Source: a virus
Lineage: Duplodnaviria; Heunggongvirae; Uroviricota; Caudoviricetes
IMG/VR virus record: IMGVR_UViG_3300029906_000160
Reading direction: 5' to 3' (one strand)
DNA length: 64,000 nt
The position numbers were made by a program, and so were the translations under genes. Below the pieces are notes generated by a model. That model was not told the DNA's origin, made no database searches, and saw only the letters and a program-made list of their open reading frames with translations. Position 1 is the first letter of the stretch; each line of letters starts with the position of its first letter. This document shows positions 4,963 to 35,211 of this stretch, piece after piece.

Positions 4963-5052
4963 GTCTTAGAGCAGGAGCTGAACGGGTCGAACGCTCACCT
5001 GAGGCTTTGGAGGCCCCCTTTACGGTTTTGAAGACCGCTGTGCTACCATTAC
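4963..5052 (-). tRNA. tRNA with anticodon UCA (reads UGA); tRNA-Trp-like backbone; atypical 25-nt variable region
   Basis: acceptor GGAGCUU/AGCUCC; D-arm UAGUGUAAUGGUAGCAC; anticodon arm GCGGU-CUUCAAA-ACCGU (E. coli tRNA-Trp has ..GGUCUCCAAAACCG..); T-arm GAGCG-UUCGACC-CGUUC; 90 nt. Confidence 0.6.
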
Positions 5053-5168
5053 ACTAAGCTCCTATTAAAATAAAGAACTCTCTATTTGCTTAGATTTATA
5101 ATCTCTCTAAATATTTGTTCTTTTAATTTCTAATACAAATATATAAAGAAATTTTTAATCTTACAAAT

Positions 5169-5630
5169 TTATTTTTGAGAGTTCGAATCGGAAAAGAATG
5201 CAATTACTTTATCAGTAATTTCGTCGGTTAAACCAGTTTCATAATCAATTCCAAAGAATGGTTGACCTGGAATCATATCTGTACGATCATCGATTATACA
5301 CCATCGATCATCTTTAGTTAAATGTTGATCTACCCAATTCTGAATTTCTTTACCACGACTTAATTCTTTTGGAGAAAAGATACTCATTTCAGTACGACCA
5401 ATAATTACACCAGTTAAGCCAGCAGTATATAGTCTTTTACAAGAACAGTTAAAATCGTATCTCCAATCTGAAGACATAACAAGATATGCCCCTGTTTCAG
5501 AGCATATCCTGTTTAGCCTTTCAATACATTTTGGATCTAGATCCTCGTCTATTGCGTTTGGATGATATGATTGATACCAAGTCTCAGAATTAAGAGTTCC
5601 ATCAATATCGAACATAATAAAATTAGCCAT
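5169..5630 (-). CDS. HAD-superfamily hydrolase/phosphatase
   Basis: N-terminal FDIDGTL (DxDGT motif). Confidence 0.55.
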   Translation of the reverse strand: MANFIMFDIDGTLNSETWYQSYHPNAIDEDLDPKCIERLNRICSETGAYLVMSSDWRYDFNCSCKRLYTAGLTGVIIGRTEMSIFSPKELSRGKEIQNWVDQHLTKDDRWCIIDDRTDMIPGQPFFGIDYETGLTDEITDKVIAFFSDSNSQK

Positions 5631-6430
5631 TATATAAACTTATAAAATTCAGCAGATTCAAGTTTGGCATAATCTCTTAGTTCTTGCTCAAAATAAGGAA
5701 GTATATACTGTGCTACTTTTTGTCGCATCCAAGCTGGAACTCCTCCGTAATAAGCTTCGGCGATAGATCCTGCAATAGCAGCTTGAGTATCTGCATCTCC
5801 TCCAAGACTAATAGCAAGTTTAATCGTCTCTTCGTATGAACGACCTTCAAGAAAACATAAAATTGCTTCTGGTACTGAACCTTGACATGTGGCATCAAAT
5901 TTATAATCTGATCGTATATCATCAAGTTTTCTCTCAAGATTATATCCAAAATTATTAATAATATACGCCTTTATATAATTCTTTGTCTGTCCAATACGAG
6001 CGAGATAAATAGCAGATGCTGTAGCTTGAGCACCCTTTATTCCTTCTGGATCATTATGTGTACATTCAGCAGTAATCTTAGCATCTTTCATTACATCTCT
6101 AAGACAATGATTCATCCAAGCTACTGGAGAAACCCTCATTGCTGAACCATTACCGAATGAACCATAAGCTCCCATTTTAGGATCTACAAGCCACTTTCTA
6201 AACATTCCACCATATCCTACTTTTGGATATTTAAGGCCATACCAACGATAATAAGTTTCTATAGGGCTCTTTTTACCATCAACATACCATTTCATAGTAG
6301 CGATAGTCATTACTGTATCATCAGTAAATTTAGATCCTGGCTGAAACAAAAATGGATTTTTAGATTTAGTTCTATGATCTCCAAATTCGTAATAAGATCC
6401 GCAAACATCACCTATAATTGCTCCGTACAT
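5630..6430 (-). CDS. ADP-ribosylglycohydrolase (DraG/ARH family)
   Basis: family-typical glycine/acidic-rich signatures; C-terminal GGDADTQAAIAGSIAEAYYG. Confidence 0.8.
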   Translation of the reverse strand: MYGAIIGDVCGSYYEFGDHRTKSKNPFLFQPGSKFTDDTVMTIATMKWYVDGKKSPIETYYRWYGLKYPKVGYGGMFRKWLVDPKMGAYGSFGNGSAMRVSPVAWMNHCLRDVMKDAKITAECTHNDPEGIKGAQATASAIYLARIGQTKNYIKAYIINNFGYNLERKLDDIRSDYKFDATCQGSVPEAILCFLEGRSYEETIKLAISLGGDADTQAAIAGSIAEAYYGGVPAWMRQKVAQYILPYFEQELRDYAKLESAEFYKFI

Positions 6431-6437
6431 AATTTAA

Positions 6438-7118
6438 TTATTTATAATAAGCATTAAATGAACTTGCACTTATTTGTTCTATATGTGCGTTTTTTCTAAA
6501 TTCTTCAAGAGTTCTTGAATTACAGTAAGACATTGCTGAACGAAAATAACTAATAAAATTGTCACACCATCCAGCTAAAGTATATTTAATAGGAACAAGA
6601 GTTTCTATTCCTTCTGCTGTTTTTGTTGCTTCTCCACTTATTTCTGTTTGAGCTCTTTTTGTAGACATTCCATAATACTTACGTACTCTTTCGCCATTAT
6701 GATTAAATATAACTTTTCCACAAGCTTCTTCACTCATAGCAAATATCTTACCCAACATTACATAATCAGCACCAATTGCAAGAGCTTTGATTATTTGATC
6801 AAAATTAGAGAATCCTCCATCTGCAACTATTTTTGGAATAGATCTATAAGGACTGTAATAAATATATTTTTCTCCATCACAATTTTTTCGTTCTTTTCCA
6901 TTATACTCAGTTGAAACACTTACTGTATTCTTATGAAAAACTAATTTCTGAAGTAAAGAAACCATTGGATAATGAATACTCGAATTTGCCGAAGTAGTAC
7001 AATTGTGAACAACAAAATCATTAGCGATATATTGATGCTCTTTTTCAACTTCAATATCAAAAACCTCTGTAGATTGATACTTAATTTCTACAGAGGTTAT
7101 TTCTACAAAATTAATCAT
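6438..7118 (-). CDS. C-terminal split-intein half (IntC, 39 aa) fused to the C-extein of an IMPDH/GMP-reductase family enzyme
   Basis: N-term MINFVEITSVEIKYQSTEVFDIEVEKEHQYIANDFVVHN (intein blocks F/G ending HN) followed by CTTSAN (IMPDH catalytic-loop remainder); ADGGF..KALAIGADYVMLG TIM-barrel motifs. Confidence 0.8.
   Translation of the reverse strand: MINFVEITSVEIKYQSTEVFDIEVEKEHQYIANDFVVHNCTTSANSSIHYPMVSLLQKLVFHKNTVSVSTEYNGKERKNCDGEKYIYYSPYRSIPKIVADGGFSNFDQIIKALAIGADYVMLGKIFAMSEEACGKVIFNHNGERVRKYYGMSTKRAQTEISGEATKTAEGIETLVPIKYTLAGWCDNFISYFRSAMSYCNSRTLEEFRKNAHIEQISASSFNAYYK
7002..7118 (-). other. IntC split-intein segment
   Basis: blocks F and G; terminal Asn followed by +1 Cys. Confidence 0.7.
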
Positions 7119-8160
7119 ACATTAATTGTCTTATTTTATTTATTGTTTCTGGATTTTTAATATCATCTTTAGTTAAACGTAAAAATTTATATCCATTATC
7201 TTTAGCAAACTGTTCTTTTAATTGATCCCTTTCTTTTTCATCCTCTTTATGATATTTTCCTGTAGAATCATATTCGATTAAAACAGTTTTATTTATAAAG
7301 TAATCATAAATAACATATCCATCACTTAATTCAAACTTTTTTCCAAGTATAATTAAGTTTCCAATTTCAGGAAAATAAAATTTTAAAACTTGATAAAATT
7401 CAAATTCTTCATTAGAGTGAAGACCATAAGATAAATAAATATCTATTTCATCGCCATACAATCGTTTAAGATTTTTATAAACAGTTTCAGCAGATTTGGT
7501 TATTTTTTCATCATGTTTTTCGTTATAATATTTAACTAAAGAATGAATTGTATATTTTTGTGGATTTGCTTTAATCAAAAGATACATCCATGTATATGAA
7601 TTATTAGATTCTGTTTCGATAAAACCTTTACTCTCTACAACAAAATTATATCGATAAAAATCAGTTAATTCTGTGATTTCTTTTTCTGTACAAATTTCTA
7701 AAGCAATTCATACTTTTTTAAGAGTTCTTTTATCTATATTATATTGTTTTGCTACATCTATTAAAGGAGTTTCTTTATTAGAAAACATTTGAAAAGCTTC
7801 TGTAAAAGTTTTTTCATCATAACGATTCTTATACCATTGTTTTACATCAAAAGTATTCTTTAAAGATGGCTTTATTTTTTCTTTTATTTCTTGATTCGCT
7901 TGCTTAAGCATCCGCCCCATACAAGAATCTGTAGCATATTTATTAAATTCCCAACGCTTTCCTCCCGTACGTAAATGTAACGGATTTCCACAACCACAAG
8001 GGCATATAGGATGAACTCCGTTGTATCAAAATTTAACAATATAATCTTCTAATTCCATTTGATGATCTATTTTAATATGAGATCTCAATTTTGCTTTACA
8101 TGAACTTTCTTTTTCATATGTAAATTCTTTACCACAAATTTCGCATTTCAATGTTACCAT
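7111..8160 (-). CDS. free-standing homing endonuclease: N-terminal Zn-finger plus C-terminal Vsr/PD-(D/E)xK-like domain; 2 in-frame TGA read as Trp
   Basis: continuous 349-codon frame once TGA is sense (joins track ORFs 7111-7587 and 7708-7920 plus 7921-8160); CEICGKEF..CPCGCG; C-term VIYDYFINKTVLIEYDSTGKYH..DQLKEQFAKDNGYKFLRL. Confidence 0.65.
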
Positions 8161-8255
8161 ATTTTTAAAATTTTATAAGTTATACAATGTGCTATAGTTG
8201 TACCTCAACTACTAATACAAAAATAAGTATAAAATTTTAAAAATACAAATAAATG

Positions 8256-9047
8256 TTACACAATTTTATCCTCTACCAATAAATATTCAGAAGTTAAATT
8301 TTTTGCTTCAATATAAAAAGAATACTCAGATAAATTATTTTCTGTTACTTTATCTTTGTCTTTTTTATTTATAACAAGAAATTTATGATCTGGAGTACAT
8401 TTTATTTTATTATTTATCATTATTGTAGAATCGGTTGTCTTTTTAAAAGTAGAAACTACTTTTTGATTTCCAAAAATGGTTTTTACTTGTTCTCCAACAT
8501 CAATATCTTCGATATTCTTTTTCGTTCCATTTGCCATTGTAACTTTTGTTCCAGCAACAAAACAGCAACTTCCACCACCAATTCCACAACGAACATAGTC
8601 TATTCCTGCTCTAGCATATTCAAAATATGTATCTGGATTAGCTATATTACCCGCCATTATCTTAATCTCATCTCCGAACTTTTCTTTAGCTTGTTTACAG
8701 AGATTAAGAAGCCTCTTCATATGACCATTAGCTATATCTACACAAACATAGATAGTTTGAATTGGATGATAAAAATCAATCAATCTTTCAAATTCAGATA
8801 AAGATACAGCTATAAAAGTTTTATTAGATAAATCTAGTCTAGTTTCCCAATTAACTGACCTTGGAATAATAGTATTTATCTTATTATCTTGAAACATCTT
8901 CCAGTTATTTTCATCTATAACTGAGGTCATAGGCGCAGTAAATAATGGAAGCATACCATTATCCAAATAAGGATTACATTCACTTCTATGTTCTATTTCA
9001 GAAATGTCTGCTGGAACAAGACAAATGTCGTTAAATGAAAGTAACAT
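8256..9047 (-). CDS. N-extein of an IMPDH/GMP-reductase family enzyme (161 aa) fused to N-terminal split-intein half (IntN, 102 aa)
   Basis: ..YVRCGIGGGSC|CFVAGTKVTMANG (intein block A starting with Cys); block B CTPDHKF; ends with TAA. Confidence 0.8.
   Translation of the reverse strand: MLLSFNDICLVPADISEIEHRSECNPYLDNGMLPLFTAPMTSVIDENNWKMFQDNKINTIIPRSVNWETRLDLSNKTFIAVSLSEFERLIDFYHPIQTIYVCVDIANGHMKRLLNLCKQAKEKFGDEIKIMAGNIANPDTYFEYARAGIDYVRCGIGGGSCCFVAGTKVTMANGTKKNIEDIDVGEQVKTIFGNQKVVSTFKKTTDSTIMINNKIKCTPDHKFLVINKKDKDKVTENNLSEYSFYIEAKNLTSEYLLVEDKIV
8259..8564 (-). other. IntN split-intein segment
   Basis: blocks A (CFVAG) and B (TPDH) located in the last 102 codons. Confidence 0.7.
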
Positions 9048-11265: not shown

Positions 11266-11831
11266 TTATTTTGTATATTTCTTTCGTTCTTTTCTTCCAT
11301 TACCTTTATTAGCACCTTTATACGTAGCAGTTAAAGAATGACAATTTGGACATAATAGTATTAAATTTTCTTCAGAATTATTTAAATAATTTCCATCTAT
11401 GTGTTCGACTTCTAATGGAATTTTATTAGTATATGGATTTGTTTCTCCTCACCCACATCTAGCACATTTATTATTATATTTTTTAAACAAATAACACTTT
11501 AAATAAGAACTAACTTGATACTCGCCTTTTAATCCTGTTTCTTTTCCCTCTTTTCAACGTTTTTCTCATTCCTTTTGTTCTCAATTTTGTTGACATTGGT
11601 GAGAACAAAATTTTAAGTGAGCTTTATGTAAATTCTGTCCACAATTAAGGCAAACGCCATAATCTTTTTCTTTTTGAGTTGTTAATAAAATATCTAATTT
11701 TATTGCTCATCTTTTTATAGTTCGTCAATTAACATTATATAGTCTTCCTATTTCTGCATAAGAAAGTTGTTGAACGTTAATTAAATTGTTTAATGTTTCT
11801 TTGTCAATCATTTTAAAAATCTACTGTAATA
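11266..11831 (-). CDS. HNH homing endonuclease with N-terminal HTH; 5 in-frame TGA read as Trp
   Basis: CARCGW..LEVEHIDGN..NLILLCPNCH; HTH LSYAEIGRLYNVNWRTIKRW; unreadable in the standard code. Confidence 0.75.
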
Positions 11832-12152
11832 ACCATTATACTAAAAAGGCAATAAATGTTACTAATACGTAGCCAACGGAGCATTTTATGGTTGCACAAC
11901 CTGGAGCAGAATACATAATTCCACACAGTACATGTTAAATAAGTATTATAAGTAACATAATGGCTTGCGGGAGTTGAAGGTAACGCTCCTCCGTACTCAC
12001 GTTAACAGCGTGAAGTTCTACTTTTGAACTAAACTCCCAACAATCTACTTTATCCTACATACGAAAAGTAGTAAAACGTATCTCCATACGATGAGATTCA
12101 TGAGCGACAGGGCTTCAAGATGCTACGATTCACTCGTCAGTGACTAATTATT

Positions 12153-12227
12153 GAGCGCCAGTGGGACTCGAACCCACGTAGAATGGCTTATGAGACCATG
12201 CTGGGACCATCTCCAGTCTACAGCGCT
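12153..12227 (-). tRNA. tRNA-Met/Ile2 (CAU)
   Basis: acceptor AGCGCUG/UGGCGCU; anticodon loop CUCAUAA; T-arm GUGGGUUCGAGUCCCAC. Confidence 0.6.
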
Positions 12228-12261
12228 ATATTGTATCGCATAAATGTTTATTTATAATATA

Positions 12262-12720
12262 TCAAAGAGTACCTTTACTCTTTATATTATATTTTTTCAT
12301 TAAATCTTTATAAGAAAGCCCAAGATGTTTATCGCTTCGAATTTGTTTTATTAATTCATTAGAATAAATTCTATTTGCTAACGCAGATTTCTTTATTCTT
12401 ACTTTTTCTGGAATATCAAACATATTATCAGAATTAGTTCCAATTTCAATATTTTCCTCTTTATTGTTTAAAGAATTTCCATCTAAATGTCTAATAACCA
12501 TATCTTTTTCATAAATCTTTTCTTTAAACTTTTTATATGCTTGAAATCTATGATGATATACCTTAATATTCTTTCCATTTAACTTAAAAGAAAAATATAA
12601 ATAAGGTTGTTTTCCTCTAGTTCCAACAATGTTGCCTTTTGGACTTGTAACAATTCCATCTTTAGAAATTACATAACCTTTATTTCAAGCTAATTCTTCA
12701 TAATGATTATAATTTACCAT
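12262..12720 (-). CDS. HNH (HNH_3-type) endonuclease; 1 internal TGA read as Trp; annotated stop is itself TGA
   Basis: YHHRF..VIRHLDGNSLNNKEENIEIGTNSDN; track ORF 12262-12501 extends upstream through a TGA to an ATG at 12720. Confidence 0.65.
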
Positions 12721-12741: not shown

Positions 12742-12900
12742 TGACTCCTGTGGGACTTGAACCCGACGACCCCATCATTAATTTCAGACAAGTCTGGATA
12801 GTTGGGCACGATCCAACGACCTCCAGTTCCCAAAACTGGCGTTCTACCAACTGAACTACATCCAGAAAGTGATGTGCTCTACCAACTGAGCTAAGGAGTC
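12742..12900 (-). tRNA. tRNA-Lys (UUU)-like gene interrupted in its anticodon loop by about 85 nt that contain a complete tRNA-Pro
   Basis: 5' half GACUCCU-UA-GCUCAGUUGGUAGAGC-A-CAUCA-CUUU; 3' half UAA-UGAUG-..UUCAAGU..-AGGAGUC-A; perfect 7-bp acceptor and 5-bp anticodon stems between the halves. Confidence 0.5.
12793..12865 (-). tRNA. tRNA-Pro (UGG), nested inside the tRNA-Lys-like gene
   Basis: C1:G72 acceptor CUGGAUG/UAUCCAG; D-arm GUUCAGUUGGUAGAAC; anticodon arm CCAGU-UUUGGGA-ACUGG; T-stem GUUGG/CCAAC; 73 nt. Confidence 0.65.
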
Positions 12901-13009
12901 GCTCTTAAGATACTTATTTTAAACCTAACTTATCAATTAATGTAAATATAAACTTGTAAGTATCTTATTTTATGTTAATCTTCAGTATTATAAATTTCTC
13001 TAGTTACTT

Positions 13010-14690: not shown

Positions 14691-15350
14691 TTATTTAATT
14701 AATACTTCATCGATTAAACCATAAGATTTTGCTTCTTCTGCATTAAACCAACAATCTCTATCTGCATTCTCTACAATTTGAGAATATATAATTCCTGTGT
14801 TCTTAGAAAGTATTTCATATAGAGTTTGTTTGTATTGTTTAATTTCTTCGTAAGCAATTTTTATATCTGATTCTTGAGTTCCTGGAGCAATTCCACCCAT
14901 AGGTTGATGAATCATTATCTTACTATGTGGTAATGCGAATCGTTTACCTTTAGTTCCACTAGATAATAAAACTGCTCCCATAGATGCTGCTAATCCAATT
15001 GCATAAGTTTCTACATTTGGAGATATATACTGCATCATATCATAAATAGCAAGTCCATCAACTATCGAACCTCCAGGACTATTTATAAATAATTTAATCT
15101 CAGTTTTATCATCCATTGTATTTAAATACAACAACTGAGAAGTAATAATATTAGCAACATCTGCGTCAATGTCTGTTCCAAGAAAGATAATTCTATCAGC
15201 CATCAATCTTGAAAATATATCCATAGTTGCTACATTATTTCGTCTTTCTTCTACAATAGTTGGACTTATAATATCATTAGTAAACTTTTGATAATCCCAC
15301 ATTTTATGAGATCCTACTCGCGAACTCAGAAACTTTTCGTAATCTTTCAT
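14691..15350 (-). CDS. clpP: ATP-dependent Clp protease proteolytic subunit ClpP
   Basis: catalytic-Ser region GLAASMGAVLL, His region MIHQPMGG; 219 aa; no TGA. Confidence 0.9.
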   Translation of the reverse strand: MKDYEKFLSSRVGSHKMWDYQKFTNDIISPTIVEERRNNVATMDIFSRLMADRIIFLGTDIDADVANIITSQLLYLNTMDDKTEIKLFINSPGGSIVDGLAIYDMMQYISPNVETYAIGLAASMGAVLLSSGTKGKRFALPHSKIMIHQPMGGIAPGTQESDIKIAYEEIKQYKQTLYEILSKNTGIIYSQIVENADRDCWFNAEEAKSYGLIDEVLIK

Positions 15351-15744: not shown

Positions 15745-16954
15745 GTCGTATATTTTATTTTATAAGCTTAATGTTATAATATTCACAGAGAGAATTTAAA
15801 ACATTTCTTTTAATGTTAAATATTTCAAATAGTTTCTGTTTTGTCTTATATTTACTTCAAGCTTCTAATAAGTCTTCTTTAGAAACTATAGGATTTCCAT
15901 TTTCATCTAATATAGACCTCAATTTTAATCATTTAGCGTTACATTCGCGAGAACAACAAACACTTTTTCTATCTTGAGGTTTATATTCTTTCCCACAAAC
16001 GATACAAATTCGTTTTGGAACAGGTTGTTTATTATTTAAACCTAACTCTGTTTTAGTAGATGGAAGATTATATTGTCTACATCATCTTCTAACAGTATTA
16101 TCTGTAACTCCAAATTGTTTAGCGATATTACGAAAACTTCTAGTTTGAATTGCTTCTTTTAATCATTCTTTTGTCGGATATTCTAAATTTGCGTTTTCAT
16201 TATTCTTTAATCTAGATTTTTGTAAAGTATCTAATCTAGATTTTGTACTACATTCTTTAGAACAAAAATCAGATGTACCAGAAAACTCTTTACCACAATA
16301 CTTACATTTCTTAATTTTGTGTTTTACTATAAGCTGATTTTCTTTCTTTATATTTTTACCACAATAATTATCTGTTATTGCATGACAATTTGGACACAAT
16401 AGTTGTAAATTTTCAATTCTATTATCAGTATTAATTCCATTAATATGATGGACTTCTAATGGAATTTGTTGTCCTTCTCATTCTGTTTTATTACATTTTT
16501 CACATTTTCATTCTTTTAATCCAAATTCCACTAATCTAATTTTTAATTTAGATTTTTGATAATCTGAATTTTCTTTAAATATATCTTCTTTAGTATATTT
16601 CTTTCTAACTTTTTCTTTTGTATTATCTATACAAAAATGAGAAGTATCAATATTATATTTTTCTATAATTTTGTTAATACGAGAATAATTTGTATTTGTC
16701 GCTCTAATTCCTAAATTTTTACAAACATCGTTTATATTCTTACATTTTGGAATTAAATCAACAATAATTTGTTCATATTCTTGTTTAGCTTTTTCTCGTT
16801 CGATTATCTTTTCTCTATCTTTTTGTCATTTAGTACCAAGATAATAAGCTACTAATGATTTTGTAGAATTACATTTTGATGCAATTTGAGTATAACTTAA
16901 TCCTTGATTATGTAATTCTTTAAATAATTTATATTTTTCTTCAGCTTCAGTCAT
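15745..16954 (-). CDS. HNH homing endonuclease with multiple HTH domains (about 402 aa); 7 in-frame TGA read as Trp
   Basis: LEVHHINGINTDNRIENLQLLCPNCH; C-terminal HTH ..NTVRRWCRQYNL with W=TGA; track shows only a 78-aa fragment (16163-16399). Confidence 0.75.
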
Positions 16955-17345: not shown

Positions 17346-17465
17346 AATGCTACTATTGTACGTGCTCTAACCATCTGAGCTATACGCAAAATGCGCAACC
17401 GGACTTGAACCGATGACCACGAGATTACGAATCTAAAACTTTGATTTTGTAAGTAGCAATTATTT
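17346..17465 (-). other. tRNA-derived modules in non-canonical order (T-arm AUCGGUUCAAGUCCGGU upstream of D-arm UAGCUCAGAUGGUUAGAGCA)
   Basis: hand alignment; no complete cloverleaf. Confidence 0.35.
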
Positions 17466-17884: not shown

Positions 17885-18235
17885 TCTAGAAGTTGGATTC
17901 GAACCAACAATTATTTAATAGTTTTATAAGTAACATAATTAATAAAAGTCTATTGACACTTTATACGTTGCTCTACTAATGAGCTTTATTGATAATTCAA
18001 TAAAAGGATTTGCACCTTTAACCTACGGGTTACAAGCCAGATTTTGTTTTATAAGTGTCAAATTATAAGTCTAATGATACATTTATACTTATGCTCTACC
18101 ACTGAGCTAATTAATCAATTTTTTGGCGATTAATACTGGATTTGAACCAGTTACCTTAAGTTCCCCACAATAGTTTTATATGTATCATATTTGGGAGTTA
18201 AAAGATATTCGAAATCTTTCCTTTTCAGTCACAGT
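17885..18235 (-). other. array of tRNA modules (3 canonical D-arms, 4 T-arms) interleaved with promoter-like motifs; order and acceptor complementarity suggest permuted or fragmented tRNA genes
   Basis: minus strand: T-arm(ACUGG-UUCAAAU-CCAGU)+AUUAAUC..GAUUAAU+D-arm(UAGCUCAGUGGUAGAGC); repeated pattern. Confidence 0.35.
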
Positions 18236-18291: not shown

Positions 18292-18630
18292 TTATTCTTC
18301 CAAATTATTTTCAAAATTTATTTTTCCAACACAACTAACAAAAGTTGTATGAAATTTATCATCTTGAAAAATATAATAATTGTCCAAATAAGAATACGCA
18401 ACACCAACAAGTGTTTGAAGTCGTCCTTCTATTTTAGATTTTTCTCCAAAATGTTTTGCTGCTTCTTTTAGACATTCTGGAAATTCTTCTCCATCTAACA
18501 TTGTATCATATAATACAATATTTGGATCATAAACAGATATTTCTTCTCCTTCATCAAAAGGATTATAAAGAGAAGAGGGTCTATTTCTAAACCACTCTTC
18601 TCTTCGTAATATGTATTCAGGATCTCTCAT
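18292..18630 (-). CDS. hypothetical protein
   Basis: ORF track. Confidence 0.45.
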   Translation of the reverse strand: MRDPEYILRREEWFRNRPSSLYNPFDEGEEISVYDPNIVLYDTMLDGEEFPECLKEAAKHFGEKSKIEGRLQTLVGVAYSYLDNYYIFQDDKFHTTFVSCVGKINFENNLEE

Positions 18631-20498
18631 TATAGAACATTCTGTCTTACAAGGTCATAGCGATTTGATCTATAGAGACTCTGAAGTGGAGTATATACAT
18701 CAAATATATCCATATCCTTGAAGTTAGTAAGAATCTGCTCGATCTGCTCTGGATTACCTGGAACATACATAAAATTGTCTATTCCAGAAAACCTATTCAT
18801 ATCTACTCGATTCCATTTATCTATAACAATAGCGATGATAAATGGCTTATATCCGAAATACTTCTCACAACGGCGCATAAAATCATTCATACAAGCCTCT
18901 GGTGATCCCATTGATGTATTAAAGTCACCATCCGATATGATAGTCCATACAGGATAGTTCCTAAGAGCATCTAAAAGATCTGGATTGACCTCTGCCATAT
19001 TATGAAATCCTTCTGGAATTGCTGAAACATCAGTCCAACCTCCTCTATACTTGCATTCCATGAAATTAGCAATATTCAGATAATTATCATAGAAACTCTT
19101 TGTTGGATCTACAAATGCATGAGGAGCACAAGAGACATAACCATTATTTCTACGAGCAAAAATCTGATTTGGAGCAGTATTACGAGCCTTTACATCAATA
19201 TACTGATACAAGACTGAATCTGCACCAAACAATCCAAGCATATTTCGACCAGTATCATCTGGATTCTTAACAAGACATACAGAAGCCATAAACTTAGCAA
19301 AGTTAAATGGAGCGCCTTGCATAGAACCAGAATCATCAACAATTACGAGACTATTATATGGCAAATTTACTTTACCTACAAAAGACTCCAACTTCAGTTT
19401 ATCTACATTTCCATTTAATATGTCCTGATAGATAGACTTAAATGTTGATGCACCAGTAGTTACTTTAGCTTGCTTTTTAACTTCCTTAAGCTTTTCGAGA
19501 TCTTCAGTTGTGGCTTCTCCCTGTCTTACTTTCTCCTCAAGAACTCTCTGTTGAGCCTGAGCTTCCTCTTTCTGAGATTCCCACTCTGCATACCACTGAC
19601 GAAGATTAGGCCACTTAAACGTTCCATTCTCTTCGGGGAACTGTACTCTATTTCTAATTCTAAAACGGGCTCCTGCAGGCTGCTTATTAAGCCATTCAAT
19701 GAATTCATCGTGAGTGAATTCATTTATCTTACCTGTTGCAAAGAGTACAGCTTCATTTTCGCCATTATAATCCTTTCTCCACGATCTATAACCTCGAAAG
19801 TCAGAATAATTACCTTTATAGATGTAATCCCAACCCATCAAATCGCTTAATTCCTTCAAGAACTCAGCTTTAGCTTTCATGGCTCTAAGAGTTTCTGGGA
19901 GCATCTTCTGATGTTTAGATCTCTTACCAAGTCTCGGAAGTGTGAGGAACTTTGCAATAAGCTGCTTATTAAATGGATTGGAACCATTAATCACTTTATA
20001 GAAATACTCAGCAAGAATAGTTCTATAAGTTGGATTAGAGAGCATTGTATAAGTCTCAAGAACAGTTCCAGCTCTGTTTGTCTTTACTCTATTACGAAGC
20101 AGAGTATCAAAACAGTTATACTCATTAAACAGACCTGCAAACAAAAACTTCTTAAACTGTTCAAGATTCTTAGAAAGCAGCCAGTTAACAAATATAAAGA
20201 AGCTCTCACGACTTGACATTCCTCCAGAGTCAATCTTCTTTTTACCAAAGATATTATGCTGTCTATTGGTCACATCACCTATAGAAAAACAAAGAGAATA
20301 GAACATCTTTACTTTTTCTGGATCTTTAGATACTTCACGCCATGCTGCGTCAAGCTGATTTGTAGTTATATGATCATTATCCTGAAAAAGCTCAAGACAC
20401 TTCTTACATCCATAAAACGGATTCTCGTTTTTCTTATTAAATTCTACTTGTACCATAACTAAATTAAATTCAGTCTTTTTAAATATTCTTTTTCGCAT
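18630..20498 (-). CDS. von Willebrand factor A (vWA) domain protein, 622 aa
   Basis: MIDAS motif LVIVDDSGSMQG; about 12 Trp all TGG; no TGA. Confidence 0.65.
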   Translation of the reverse strand: MRKRIFKKTEFNLVMVQVEFNKKNENPFYGCKKCLELFQDNDHITTNQLDAAWREVSKDPEKVKMFYSLCFSIGDVTNRQHNIFGKKKIDSGGMSSRESFFIFVNWLLSKNLEQFKKFLFAGLFNEYNCFDTLLRNRVKTNRAGTVLETYTMLSNPTYRTILAEYFYKVINGSNPFNKQLIAKFLTLPRLGKRSKHQKMLPETLRAMKAKAEFLKELSDLMGWDYIYKGNYSDFRGYRSWRKDYNGENEAVLFATGKINEFTHDEFIEWLNKQPAGARFRIRNRVQFPEENGTFKWPNLRQWYAEWESQKEEAQAQQRVLEEKVRQGEATTEDLEKLKEVKKQAKVTTGASTFKSIYQDILNGNVDKLKLESFVGKVNLPYNSLVIVDDSGSMQGAPFNFAKFMASVCLVKNPDDTGRNMLGLFGADSVLYQYIDVKARNTAPNQIFARRNNGYVSCAPHAFVDPTKSFYDNYLNIANFMECKYRGGWTDVSAIPEGFHNMAEVNPDLLDALRNYPVWTIISDGDFNTSMGSPEACMNDFMRRCEKYFGYKPFIIAIVIDKWNRVDMNRFSGIDNFMYVPGNPEQIEQILTNFKDMDIFDVYTPLQSLYRSNRYDLVRQNVL

Positions 20499-23278: not shown

Positions 23279-23737
23279 TTATAACTCTGAAACTTGATGT
23301 GATACTGTATCGATAACAAATGCGCGTCTACAATCTAAATCTACAAAATTTTCTAAAATTATGGGATTTTCCTTCGTTTGGGAATGTCCGAAAACCTGGA
23401 ATAAAGTATCGTCACAATCAGATTCACGAACATCATGCCAAATTGGAGAACCAGTAGAATACCAACCACCTCTTTCCCAACTCATTTCCCAAAATATTTC
23501 AGGAGATGCTTTATATATCTCATTTAGATAAATATCTGCATCAGTTTCTGGAAGTTTTAGATCATGACGCTTTAACCAATCTTTAGATACTCCTGCATGC
23601 GTGAACAGAGTATCATCAATTTGTTTAGCTATCTGAAAAAACTCTATATCTTCAGTATATATTTGATGTAATTCATCCCACCTAAAAGAATCTATTCTAG
23701 ATGCATTATAACTCGAATAAATATAGTGCCAATCCGT
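23279..23737 (-). CDS. C-terminal half of a PPP-family Ser/Thr phosphatase (lambda-PPase/ApaH-like)
   Basis: DTLFTHAGVS, VFGHSQTK motifs; frame opens right after a TAA with no ATG; 1 TGA read as Trp upstream of the first Met. Confidence 0.6.
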   Translation of the reverse strand, partial: TDWHYIYSSYNASRIDSFRWDELHQIYTEDIEFFQIAKQIDDTLFTHAGVSKDWLKRHDLKLPETDADIYLNEIYKASPEIFWEMSWERGGWYSTGSPIWHDVRESDCDDTLFQVFGHSQTKENPIILENFVDLDCRRAFVIDTVSHQVSEL

Positions 23738-23829
23738 TTATGTTCAATGTAAATCGTTAGTTTACACCCGTTATTAACTGCTTATACTTCATTTTCGTAT
23801 AAGACCTGACTATATCTTCACCTTCGACA

Positions 23830-24702
23830 TTACTCGTTAAGGGCGGAGCATTCCGAAGCACTTGCTTCTACCACCATTTCAGGAATAGTCGATGAACCTT
23901 CAACCTCATTAGAGGAAGCTTGGCTGCTGATTACCATCTCAGGCGTCCCAGCAATTAACTCCGTTTCACTTAATGATTTCTCATTAAGAGCACAAATTAT
24001 TTCTTCAAATTTTTTCTTTTTTCTTGGAAGGAAAACTGTTGCGTCTTTATATATAAAATCATAAAACTTTTTAATATTTTGTCTACCAGAATATTCCATT
24101 GTACAAATATCGGAATTAATTCTACGTGAGTTTAACTTAGTTTGTTTAAATCCTAGATTATCAATTAAATATTGTTGATAAGCTGAAATAAAAGAAACGT
24201 ATCCGGTAATATTAAATTTAACATTATGAATAATACGTTCTCTACGTCCCTCTTTTCGTGTGGGATCGTTTACTCACATTTTCTTTCTTTTTCCATTTCA
24301 AATACAACCGTCTCCATCAAAATAACCTCGCATAAAGTGAGAAATTAAATCTTCTGGGACTTGTCATTCTGTTGGTCAAGACAAATTTTTAGTTTTACGT
24401 TTAACACATCCTTGTTTTTCTAATGATTCTGCAATATGTTTTCCGTATACATAAAATCGAATTTGATCCTCATGATTTTCATTTGTATCTTTTCTAATAA
24501 GTAATGGATAATCCGATTTCATTTCTTCTTTTAATTTATCAACAACACATCTATCTTCAATTTGAAGTGATATTGATATCTCTCCAGTAGTTGGATGTTC
24601 ATGATTACATCCATCTGCATACAATAATCCAAGAAAATATGCCTTTTCTGGCGTATTTATCTCATCAAAATAAGTTTCATCATAATTATGTTTTCTTTTC
24701 AT
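23830..24702 (-). CDS. LAGLIDADG homing endonuclease between the two phosphatase halves; several in-frame TGA read as Trp
   Basis: KAYFLGLLYADGC and HFMRGYFDGDGCIW; joins track ORFs 24376-24702 and 23830-24099. Confidence 0.7.
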
Positions 24703-24765
24703 ATATTTATAAATTTAATTGATTTAACTTTACAAATATACAAATATTTATTATGATTTCCAAAT

Positions 24766-25014
24766 TTATTTTGATGATTTCCAAAAATTTGATAATTTAT
24801 GATTACCTAGTAAAAGAGTGACTCTATCAGGGTTTTGATCCTTAAAATTTAGTATATCTAAAAGATATTGTATAGAATTAGGATATTCATCTTTCCATTC
24901 GTATGGATAAGGATCAAGATAATCTCCTAAAAATATAATTGAATCATTCCACTTTTTTACAGCATCTTTCCAAAACTCACGAAGATGTAAATCGGGAATT
25001 ATTAGCGCTTTCAT
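24766..25014 (-). CDS. N-terminal half of a PPP-family Ser/Thr phosphatase
   Basis: IIPDLHL, FLGDYLDPYP, LLLGNHK (GDxHG / GDxxDRG / GNHE motifs). Confidence 0.7.
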   Translation of the reverse strand: MKALIIPDLHLREFWKDAVKKWNDSIIFLGDYLDPYPYEWKDEYPNSIQYLLDILNFKDQNPDRVTLLLGNHKLSNFWKSSK

Positions 25015-34412: not shown

Positions 34413-34430
34413 AATTGAAAAGTTTTAATT

Positions 34431-34466
34431 AGTGGAGATATCGGGAATCGAACCCGAGTCTTTTAT
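34431..34466 (-). other. tRNA-like 3' fragment (T-arm UCGGG-UUCGAUU-CCCGA plus acceptor) bordering a 750-nt ORF-free region
   Basis: no matching 5' half found by hand; 9-nt direct repeat TGGAGATAT also at 34683. Confidence 0.35.
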
Positions 34467-35211
34467 TAATCCTATATAGTTTTTATTTATATGCTTAGTT
34501 AATTTTTCTAAACTAACAAAATAACTAAATTGATTAAAGAGTGTTTAGTAAAACTCTGAATTTAAAGAATTATAATGAAAAGAGCTATGCGAAACTATAA
34601 TTAAAAGGCATAGTGGGAGTAAAGAACTCTTTGAGTGTCTTCACTACTTTTGAGAAAAGATTTTTAATTCCGTTTATTTTTGGAGATATTTAAAGTAATC
34701 ACTTACTGCATAAAACATATACCAAATCAATAAAATCAAATCCAAGCATCCCCAATGCAAAGATAAGAAAAAGTTTTAAATATACAAATAAAAATGGATA
34801 CTAAGTATAAATAATTCGCCTGCCTTTCTAATTTCAAAATTGGACGCGCTATATAGCTATTTTATAAATATACTTAGTATCCAAATAAAAATGGAAGATC
34901 TGACTGTATGTTTAAGTAACCCAAAATGCTAGTTACATAACGCATAATCCCTACAGCTAGGCTCTATTCTCTTAAATAGACTTTAGCACCAGATCTTCCA
35001 AAAAATTGGTTATAAGGTTACCAACCCAGCCTAGGCAACTTTAATCTAGAATTCAGTTGCTTCGTTACTTCAGACGCCAAATAATATTGTCTGAGAGTCA
35101 CCTCTATCTTTAATATGTATATAAGGAAGCTGAGGAAGCTATTATACACATCCGGATCTTTATATACTTCTCCTAGTATAATCCGGCTATACTAAGAGGA
35201 CTTATAAAAGA

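Follow-up and report, generated by a model that had tools for sequence, protein, structure and literature searches.

A tRNA-Pro(UGG) gene nested in the anticodon loop of a tRNA-Lys(UUU) gene in a TGA-recoded phage and its relatives

Transfer RNAs (tRNAs) of Lak megaphages carry "enigmatic" tRNA-containing introns, and some relatives are insert-free (Devoto et al., bioRxiv 10.1101/356790; Nat Microbiol 2019). These tRNA-in-tRNA introns are the closest precedent for the locus described here, a tRNA-Pro(UGG) gene nested in the anticodon loop of a tRNA-Lys(UUU) gene, and the phenomenon is thus not new in kind. The locus lies in a 64,000-nucleotide stretch of DNA from a tailed virus (Caudoviricetes; IMG/VR record IMGVR_UViG_3300029906_000160), referred to below as the window. 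In both families a phage tRNA is interrupted in its anticodon loop by a short, non-group-I, tRNA-like insert, insert-free relatives exist, and a splicing mechanism has been described for neither; our full-text literature searches found no paper describing such a mechanism. The layouts, however, are mirror images. In Lak (Table 1) the split falls after nucleotide 36, the inner tRNA is preceded by a spacer of ~27-31 nucleotides (nt) and 0-1 nt separate its 3' end from exon 2, an arrangement in which an RNase Z-type cut would set the 3' splice site. In the present family the order is reversed, with an RNase P-type cut that would set the 5' splice site and a spacer on the 3' side. The inner elements of Lak are also odd and merely tRNA-like, whereas those of the present family are high-scoring tRNA-Pro and tRNA-Arg. 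The Lak paper (bioRxiv 10.1101/356790) contains neither the GAAAN motif, the Lys and Asn pairs, the covariation nor the HNH-linked block transfer reported below. What appears to be new is therefore the geometry, the bona fide inner tRNAs, the GAAAN rule, the two NUU-type outer species, the comparative proof of selection and the HNH-linked mobility. The window tRNA-Pro shares 87% identity with the tRNA-Pro of Lak, which is itself not nested. As side observations on Lak, the element in the tRNA-Tyr(GUA) intron has an acceptor CUACAUA/UAUGUAG, and the intron of each Lak case begins with bases complementary to those of the anticodon loop just ahead of the split (UUGU/ACAA, CUG..CAG).

Three further systems share parts of the arrangement. 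In T4 the tRNA-Lys is cut by PrrC, healed by Pnkp and sealed by Rnl1, which joins the anticodon-loop nick with a 3'-OH and a 5'-P. The tRNA and the loop are the same here, the final sealing proposed below would be the job of Rnl1, and the window encodes a phosphatase of an RNA-repair HAD family. The T4 break, however, is inflicted by a nuclease, whereas the present one is built into the gene, and RNase P would give a 3'-OH directly, with no healing on that side. The first-pass annotation had noted that this loop is where PrrC attacks tRNA-Lys; the break is at 34|35 (after U34) in the relatives and at 35|36 (after U35) in the window copy and not at the PrrC site, 33|34. Neither Rnl1 nor Pnkp was found among the ~50 open reading frames (ORFs) scanned in the window, which covers about one third of the genome. 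Collaborative homing between a cyanophage psbA intron and a free-standing homing endonuclease was reportedly described by Zeng, Bonocora and Shub in 2009. Similar to that case, a free-standing endonuclease gene adjoins the interrupted gene and travels along with it, and homology with an unsplit relative ends at the insertion point; the present "intron", however, is a tRNA and not a ribozyme. The split, permuted and multi-intron tRNAs of Archaea and red algae likewise are discontinuous tRNAs that need endonucleolytic cuts and then ligation. They belong to another domain of life and depend on a bulge-helix-bulge (BHB) motif, EndA and RtcB, none of which is evident in the present family.

Structure and conservation of the nested gene

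Every element of the nested arrangement that the first-pass annotation had described was found on the minus strand between positions 12900 and 12742. The tRNA-Lys anticodon loop is split by 85 nt, made up of the tRNA-Pro (73 nt) and a spacer (12 nt), and the whole precursor is 159 nt long. Nucleotide +1 of the tRNA-Pro directly follows the last base of exon 1, with zero gap. The inner tRNA forms a full cloverleaf with a C1:G72 pair, is called by ARAGORN as tRNA-Pro(tgg) and scores 60.7 bits against the Rfam tRNA model, for which the gathering cut-off is 29. With the 85 nt deleted, ARAGORN calls the joined outer sequence as tRNA-Lys(ttt) with the loop CUUUUAA, as had been predicted. This joined tRNA has a 7-bp acceptor stem, a D arm, a 5-bp anticodon stem, a 7-nt loop and discriminator A73. 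Both acceptor repeats, the 7-bp outer one and the inner one, were independently recovered as perfect inverted repeats. The exon-exon junction of the joined tRNA-Lys would read GAGCACAUCACUUUUAAUGAUGGGG (GAGCACATCACTTTTAATGATGGGG as a 25-mer), and that of the tRNA-Asn described below GCAGCAGACTGTTAATCTGCGGG. The identical nested sequence occurs in at least five independent assemblies (L010-L013 and L015; L numbers denote the loci compared).

As a control for chance, each of the ~231 tRNAs called in the window and the related loci was deleted together with 0-21 downstream nt and ARAGORN was run again. A spanning tRNA was uncovered only by deletion of the tRNA-Pro and its orthologues and of the tRNA-Arg of the relatives. 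By this control chance does not account for the nested arrangement. The outer tRNA-Lys is preceded, at a distance of 6 nt, by a perfect 11-nt inverted repeat (Table 1), which by eye is also present upstream of the orthologous gene in relatives, nested or not.

Relatives were retrieved by means of the neighbouring ClpP gene (14691-15350) as syntenic loci with ClpP identities of 75-100%. The orthologous position, which always follows the same conserved leader, was found in three states: nested, uninterrupted and wrecked. The nested Lys/Pro state comes in five distinct outer versions with four sequence types of inner tRNA-Pro (Table 1). The inner boundaries were confirmed by Rfam, and the tRNA-Pro types score 52.9-65.4 bits. 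In L003-L005 the tRNA-Lys is uninterrupted and a separate tRNA-Pro follows 10 nt on. For the first-pass annotation, an intact tRNA-Lys at this site in related phages, together with a clearly decayed nested copy, would have spoken against its reading. The intact gene does exist, but clear decay is not seen in the nested copy, which is kept in several diverged lineages. In L070/71 the locus is wrecked: insertion of an HNH gene with a tRNA-Lys of its own has truncated the resident tRNA-Lys in the D loop, and the tRNA-Pro has decayed. P0057 and P0061, ClpP homologues of no more than 70% identity, were rejected as relatives, as they come from an unrelated 312-kb phage without synteny.

The same design was found a second time. 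In three relatives (L006, L008/L009 and L068) a tRNA-Asn(GUU) encloses a tRNA-Arg(UCU) that scores 62-66 bits in Rfam, and a spacer of ~18-19 nt ends in GAAAN. The outer acceptor stems of the tRNA-Asn versions (UCUCCGU versus GCUCAUG) are unrelated in sequence, and both are fully paired. The tRNA-Asn of the window (11967-12038) is uninterrupted. A single rule holds for all Lys and Asn versions. The last base of exon 1 directly precedes the inner +1, without any spacer; the inner tRNA has no encoded CCA and its next base is C; a spacer of 10-19 nt carries GAAAN at its 3' end before exon 2; and the loop after joining has exactly 7 nt (CUU|UUAA in Lys, CUG|UUAA in Asn). Both outer tRNAs share U35-U36-A37-A38. 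The window copy is split one U further 3' on both sides, CUUU|UAA versus CUU|UUAA elsewhere, and the register is kept. It can equally be read as CUU|U...GAAA|UUAA, so that the phosphodiester bonds cut in this copy would be ambiguous.

Covariation was measured on seven joined outer sequences, five nested and two unsplit. All 147 of the 147 outer pair cells hold standard pairs, and 14 of the 21 pairs have changed on both sides. None of 500 shuffles reached any of the covariation measures, and sliding the 3' partners reduced pairing to 33-40%. When six full-length nested precursors were given blind to RNAalifold, the outer acceptor, D, anticodon and T stems were returned along with the inner acceptor, D and anticodon stems, and compensatory changes were seen in 18 of the 38 predicted pairs. 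The co-folding of the outer halves, which the first-pass annotation had assumed from one sequence, is thereby borne out by comparison. Among nested copies alone, seven outer pairs vary on both sides while all five versions keep 100% pairing, and a broken outer pair was seen in no nested copy. The stems of the inner tRNA-Pro also covary across its four sequence types. Judged from these alignments, the nested gene is not a decayed one-off and is conserved across diverged relatives.

Table 1. Positions of the nested genes, their relatives and the associated features (window coordinates unless a locus is named).
Feature	Position or locus	Strand	Details
Exon 1, outer tRNA-Lys(UUU)	12900-12866	minus	35 nt; GACUCCU-UA-GCUC-AGUUGGUA-GAGC-A-CAUCA-CUUU (acceptor 5' strand, D arm, anticodon-stem 5' strand, loop CUUU); from sequence, joined-construct call and covariation
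Inner tRNA-Pro(UGG)	12865-12793	minus	73 nt, C1:G72, no encoded CCA; ARAGORN, Rfam RF00005
Spacer CUUGUCUGAAAU	12792-12781	minus	12 nt, GAAAN at its end; from sequence
Exon 2, outer tRNA-Lys	12780-12742	minus	39 nt; UAA-UGAUG-GGGUC-GU(C)GGG-UUCAAGU-CCCAC-AGGAGUC-A (loop UAA, anticodon-stem 3' strand, variable loop, T arm, acceptor, discriminator A); from sequence, joined-construct call and covariation
Inverted repeat UAAGAUACUUA / UAAGUAUCUUA (also given as TAAGATACTTA/TAAGTATCTTA)	12906-12967	minus	perfect, 11 nt, arms 40 nt apart
HNH_3 homing-endonuclease gene, free-standing	12226-12720	minus	164 amino acids, two in-frame TGA read as Trp; Pfam PF13392
tRNA(CAU), last gene of co-transferred block	12153-12227	minus	ARAGORN, Rfam
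HAD phosphatase, stand-alone, RNA-repair type (PF18143 HAD_SAK_2)	5169-5630	minus	Pfam E=2.8e-25, weak HAD_PNKP match
tRNA(UCA), labelled SeC by ARAGORN	4971-5063	minus	ARAGORN
Nested Lys/Pro	window, L010-L013, L015, L072		outer acceptor GACUCCU/AGGAGUC; inner Pro type A; spacer CUUGUCUGAAAU
Nested Lys/Pro	L006		outer acceptor GAUUCCG/CGGAAUC; inner Pro type B; spacer CGACUGAAAG
Nested Lys/Pro	L008/9, L016		outer acceptor GACUCCA/UGGAGUC; inner Pro type B; spacer CGACUGAAAA
Nested Lys/Pro	L017/18		outer acceptor GAUCUCA/UGGGAUC; inner Pro type C; spacer CGACUGAAAU
Nested Lys/Pro	L068		outer acceptor GACUCCA/UGGAGUC; inner Pro type D; spacer CUAUACUAGAAAA
Nested tRNA-Asn(GUU)/tRNA-Arg(UCU)	L006:12831-12990, L008:12666-12830, L068:10777-10940		split after G34
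Lak-A1 nested genes in L090 (MK250015.1 485000-534999)	Thr(UGU) 7524-7338; Tyr(GUA) 15168-15004	minus	

Proposed maturation and alternative explanations

On balance, we favour the explanation that the locus is a functional, evolutionarily maintained two-in-one gene from which both tRNAs are made through splicing initiated by RNase P and completed by ligation. The nested cloverleaf is conserved in the alignments, and its 5' junction corresponds to the expected RNase P cut site of any pre-tRNA. In the proposed pathway the 159-nt precursor would fold as a cloverleaf within a cloverleaf, a step for which the comparative data give support. RNase P would then cut at the inner +1, as suggested by the zero-nucleotide junction in every version, giving the mature 5' end of the tRNA-Pro and an exon 1 that ends ...CUUU-3'OH. 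RNase Z or an equivalent would free the CCA-less 3' end of the tRNA-Pro and leave the spacer, with a 5'-P, on exon 2. The spacer would be removed at the conserved GAAAN by some endonuclease, or by a 5'-exonuclease with a stop signal; the conservation of the motif suggests that the cut falls after it. Finally, the exons would be kept together by the acceptor and anticodon stems, and a 3'-OH/5'-P ligase of the T4 Rnl1 type, of phage or host origin, would seal CUUUUAA. The first-pass annotation had proposed that release of the tRNA-Pro by RNase P and RNase Z would cut the tRNA-Lys precursor exactly in its anticodon loop. On the 5' side this fits, since exon 1 ends at the inner +1 in all Lys and Asn versions. 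On the 3' side it does not suffice, because the two enzymes alone would leave the spacer of 10-19 nt on exon 2 and the halves could not be ligated without a further cut. No pairing of the spacer with either exon or with the inner tRNA was consistent across versions by eye.

Several observations weigh against the production of both tRNAs. The outer T stem of the window copy (GU[C]GGG/CCCAC) has one extra, bulged C in its 5' strand, and owing to this bulge the ARAGORN drawing of the joined tRNA-Lys has just three clean T-stem pairs; the bulge is shared by the window and L072, and T stems are perfect in three other nested versions. In the native sequence the outer tRNA-Lys was called by neither ARAGORN nor Rfam, and the intron mode of ARAGORN did not call it either. 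The bulge and the failure in intron mode are not mentioned in the first-pass annotation, the description of which was otherwise accurate. The minimum-energy fold of the single sequence does not contain the full nested cloverleaf and is uninformative (z-score only -1.47), and part of the outer covariation could predate the insertion, having arisen in intact alleles, if the insert is mobile. As to enzymes, the RtcB or Rnl ligase and the polynucleotide kinase envisaged by the first-pass annotation were not found, nor was EndA or another splicing endonuclease, in Pfam and PHROG scans of ~50 window ORFs, and we know of no enzyme documented as cutting after GAAAN. Ligation is the weakest link of the proposed pathway because no ligase was found among these ORFs, which come from about one third of the phage genome.

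The only candidate for RNA-end healing among the window ORFs scanned is the stand-alone HAD_SAK_2 phosphatase, which is conserved throughout the phage family and for which we infer a tie to the nested tRNA. A search for its homologues returned stand-alone members only and no informative domain fusions. The gene adjoins an ADP-ribosylglycohydrolase gene (together 5169-6430, minus strand) just upstream of a suppressor tRNA, and genes for NAPRTase, NAD synthase and nicotinamidase lie near the HAD_SAK_2 locus in relatives.

A rather unlikely but serious alternative is that only the tRNA-Pro is produced and that the Lys-like halves are never ligated, acting instead as a leader and trailer scaffold, as a nicked tRNA-Lys decoy for anticodon nucleases or as immunity against a homing endonuclease. 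Since RNase P and RNase Z work on the half of a tRNA that holds the acceptor and T arm, processing of the outer ends would not depend on a sealed loop. Neither a ligase nor a spacer-removing enzyme among the window ORFs, the bulged C in the window T stem and the HNH linkage with block transfer would all agree with this alternative. A scaffold or decoy, however, does not need an exact sum of CUUUUAA or CUGUUAA in every version, the shifted window split included, and the discriminator, D arm and T arm of a specific isoacceptor are also kept. Moreover, the outer tRNAs Lys-UUU and Asn-GUU decode the first and third commonest codons of the window (AAA, 63.7 per 1000, and AAU, 56.3 per 1000), and no other tRNA-Lys was found in the window by ARAGORN or Rfam.

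It is improbable that the tRNA-Lys is dead and the locus a recombination scar, left when a homing-endonuclease rearrangement pushed a neighbouring tRNA-Pro into it. In favour of this reading are the tandem tRNA-Lys and tRNA-Pro of L003-L005, 10 nt apart, the wrecked L070 locus, where damage of this type is real, and the bulged C of the window copy. Against this, the five nested versions have no broken pair and carry compensatory changes, the design is repeated with Asn enclosing Arg, and the junctions and loop register are exact. Even the allele with the bulged C persists in L072, where it has one T-loop substitution and ClpP is just 75-77% identical. A conventional intron, be it of the self-splicing group I kind or an archaeal/eukaryal BHB intron that a splicing endonuclease cuts out and RtcB joins, hardly merits belief, in spite of the position in the anticodon loop and the abundance of group I introns, inteins and homing endonucleases in the genome: no Rfam intron or ribozyme matched at E<=1, the insert is just 85 nt, 73 of them cloverleaf (a group I core, P1-P9, takes ~200 nt or more), its last base is A, U or G across versions with no conserved terminal G, on the 5' side just 3-4 nt separate the inner acceptor stem from the outer anticodon stem, which leaves no room for a bulge-helix-bulge, and the split is at 34|35 or 35|36 versus the canonical 37|38. 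A hammerhead or other small ribozyme was also considered and rejected, as Rfam gave no match and a CUGAUGA-like string is not conserved.

If both tRNAs are indeed made from the nested gene, the locus might, more tentatively, represent a pathway so far undescribed in Bacteria and their viruses. In it a tRNA would serve as the intron, RNase P would make the 5' splice cut, a second cut would fall after GAAAN and a repair-type ligase would join the exons, with two tRNAs obtained per precursor (Lys and Pro, or Asn and Arg in relatives) and with the intron conferring homing immunity and spreading with the HNH gene. Maturation of the outer tRNA would mean ligase-dependent tRNA splicing in the bacterial world without a ribozyme intron, with RNase P as the splice-site nuclease, and the locus would offer a short, concrete substrate on which the "enigmatic" introns of megaphages could be tested. 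Since the outer genes are missed by standard tRNA finders, the tRNA repertoires of large phages are underestimated, which affects what is inferred from them on codon supply, on the recoding of stop codons and on how anticodon nucleases are escaped; the tRNA missed here decodes the commonest codon. The nested gene is also a natural counterpart of engineered tRNA scaffolds.

HNH linkage and spread of the block

The HNH_3 gene lies immediately downstream of the nested tRNA-Lys. Between the window and L072, identity reaches 94% in the block from 12917 to 12035, which holds the nested gene, the HNH_3 gene and tRNA(CAU), whereas the flanking genes for ClpP and isochorismatase are just 76-77% identical. 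The endonuclease gene is thus adjacent and co-inherited, as in collaborative homing, and the identities indicate that the nested gene and the HNH gene moved between diverged genomes as one block. A further 93%-identical block, common to the window and the unsplit L004, stops exactly at 12866, the 5' junction. Taken together, the identity of the L072 block, the end of the L004 homology at 12866 and the destructive alternative seen in L070 speak for gene conversion driven by an endonuclease, with its start in the DNA of the anticodon loop. The insert probably shields its carrier by destroying the target of the homing endonuclease, so that the arrangement would spread and persist. This link, absent from the first-pass annotation, offers a different reason for the nesting, and in homing-endonuclease conflicts the tRNA of this locus behaves as a mobile immunity element that resembles an intron. 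Homing immunity explains the spread, yet a maturation route is still needed if the outer tRNA is used.

A separate interruption was noted in L008 (11338-12542), where a tRNA(CAU) is seemingly split after the D arm by an insert of ~1.1 kb with an HNH_2 ORF (11447-12466), which may be a group I intron. The counterpart of this tRNA is intact in L006.

The phage and other features of the window

The phage is TGA-recoded, has a genome of ~170-180 kb and is known only from gut-type metagenome assemblies of ENA and Logan. Scans of IMG/VR, JGI metagenomes and GTDB genomes with exact and gapped patterns gave chance matches only, a ClpP-based scan of IMG/VR gave nothing, and the family was not found among GenBank phages either. 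The nearest ClpP among GenBank phages is that of Lak, at 53% identity, and a 622-amino-acid protein of the window (see below) has no match there. The GC content of the window is 31%. When TGA is read as Trp the ORF content nearly doubles, from 11.0k to 18.7k amino acids. TGA is almost confined to homing-endonuclease genes and late or structural genes, and the early genes use TGG. HNH genes (11266-11811, 12226-12720 and 15755-16954) are scattered through the tRNA cluster, which extends over 10.8-18.3 kb.

Permuted tRNA-like modules were seen at 17361-17421, 18056-18177 and ~17930-18040, all on the minus strand, each with a T arm, an acceptor-like stem closed by a short loop and a D arm, in that order. 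One has GCCA, the motif ACUUAUAAAAC follows each of them, and they also occur in L017/L018. They gave sub-threshold Rfam matches to YrlA, a bacterial Y RNA, at 38.9 and 27.2 bits. The 622-amino-acid protein (18630-20498, minus strand) lies beside these RNAs; the idea that it is a Ro60 orthologue found no support, as it has no Pfam, PHROG or PDB similarity and its homologues are uncharacterised, one with DUF2828. The protein is conserved and has a C-terminal DDSGSM (vWA-like) motif; of its more than 1200 homologues, many share ~58% identity and sit on contigs of phage size, ~95-105 kb.

Between 38000 and 41500, ~3.5 kb have a GC content of 0.39-0.44, compared with 0.31 for the window, and short overlapping ORFs in several frames; Rfam gave no match to this region and Pfam none to its two longest ORFs. 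ARAGORN called a transfer-messenger RNA at 34430-34753 (minus strand), which scored 44 bits in Rfam against a threshold of 47 bits (E=4e-15). A second calcineurin-like phosphoesterase gene (23279-25014, minus strand) is interrupted by a LAGLIDADG ORF (23830-24702); its N-terminal 82 amino acids are encoded at 24766-25014 and the likely C-terminal piece at 23279-23485. An IMPDH/GMP-reductase-like gene (6438-9047, minus strand) is split by an intein, its N part ending in a Hint domain and its C part starting ...VVHNC, and a DUF559-type endonuclease ORF (7111-8160) lies between the two halves.

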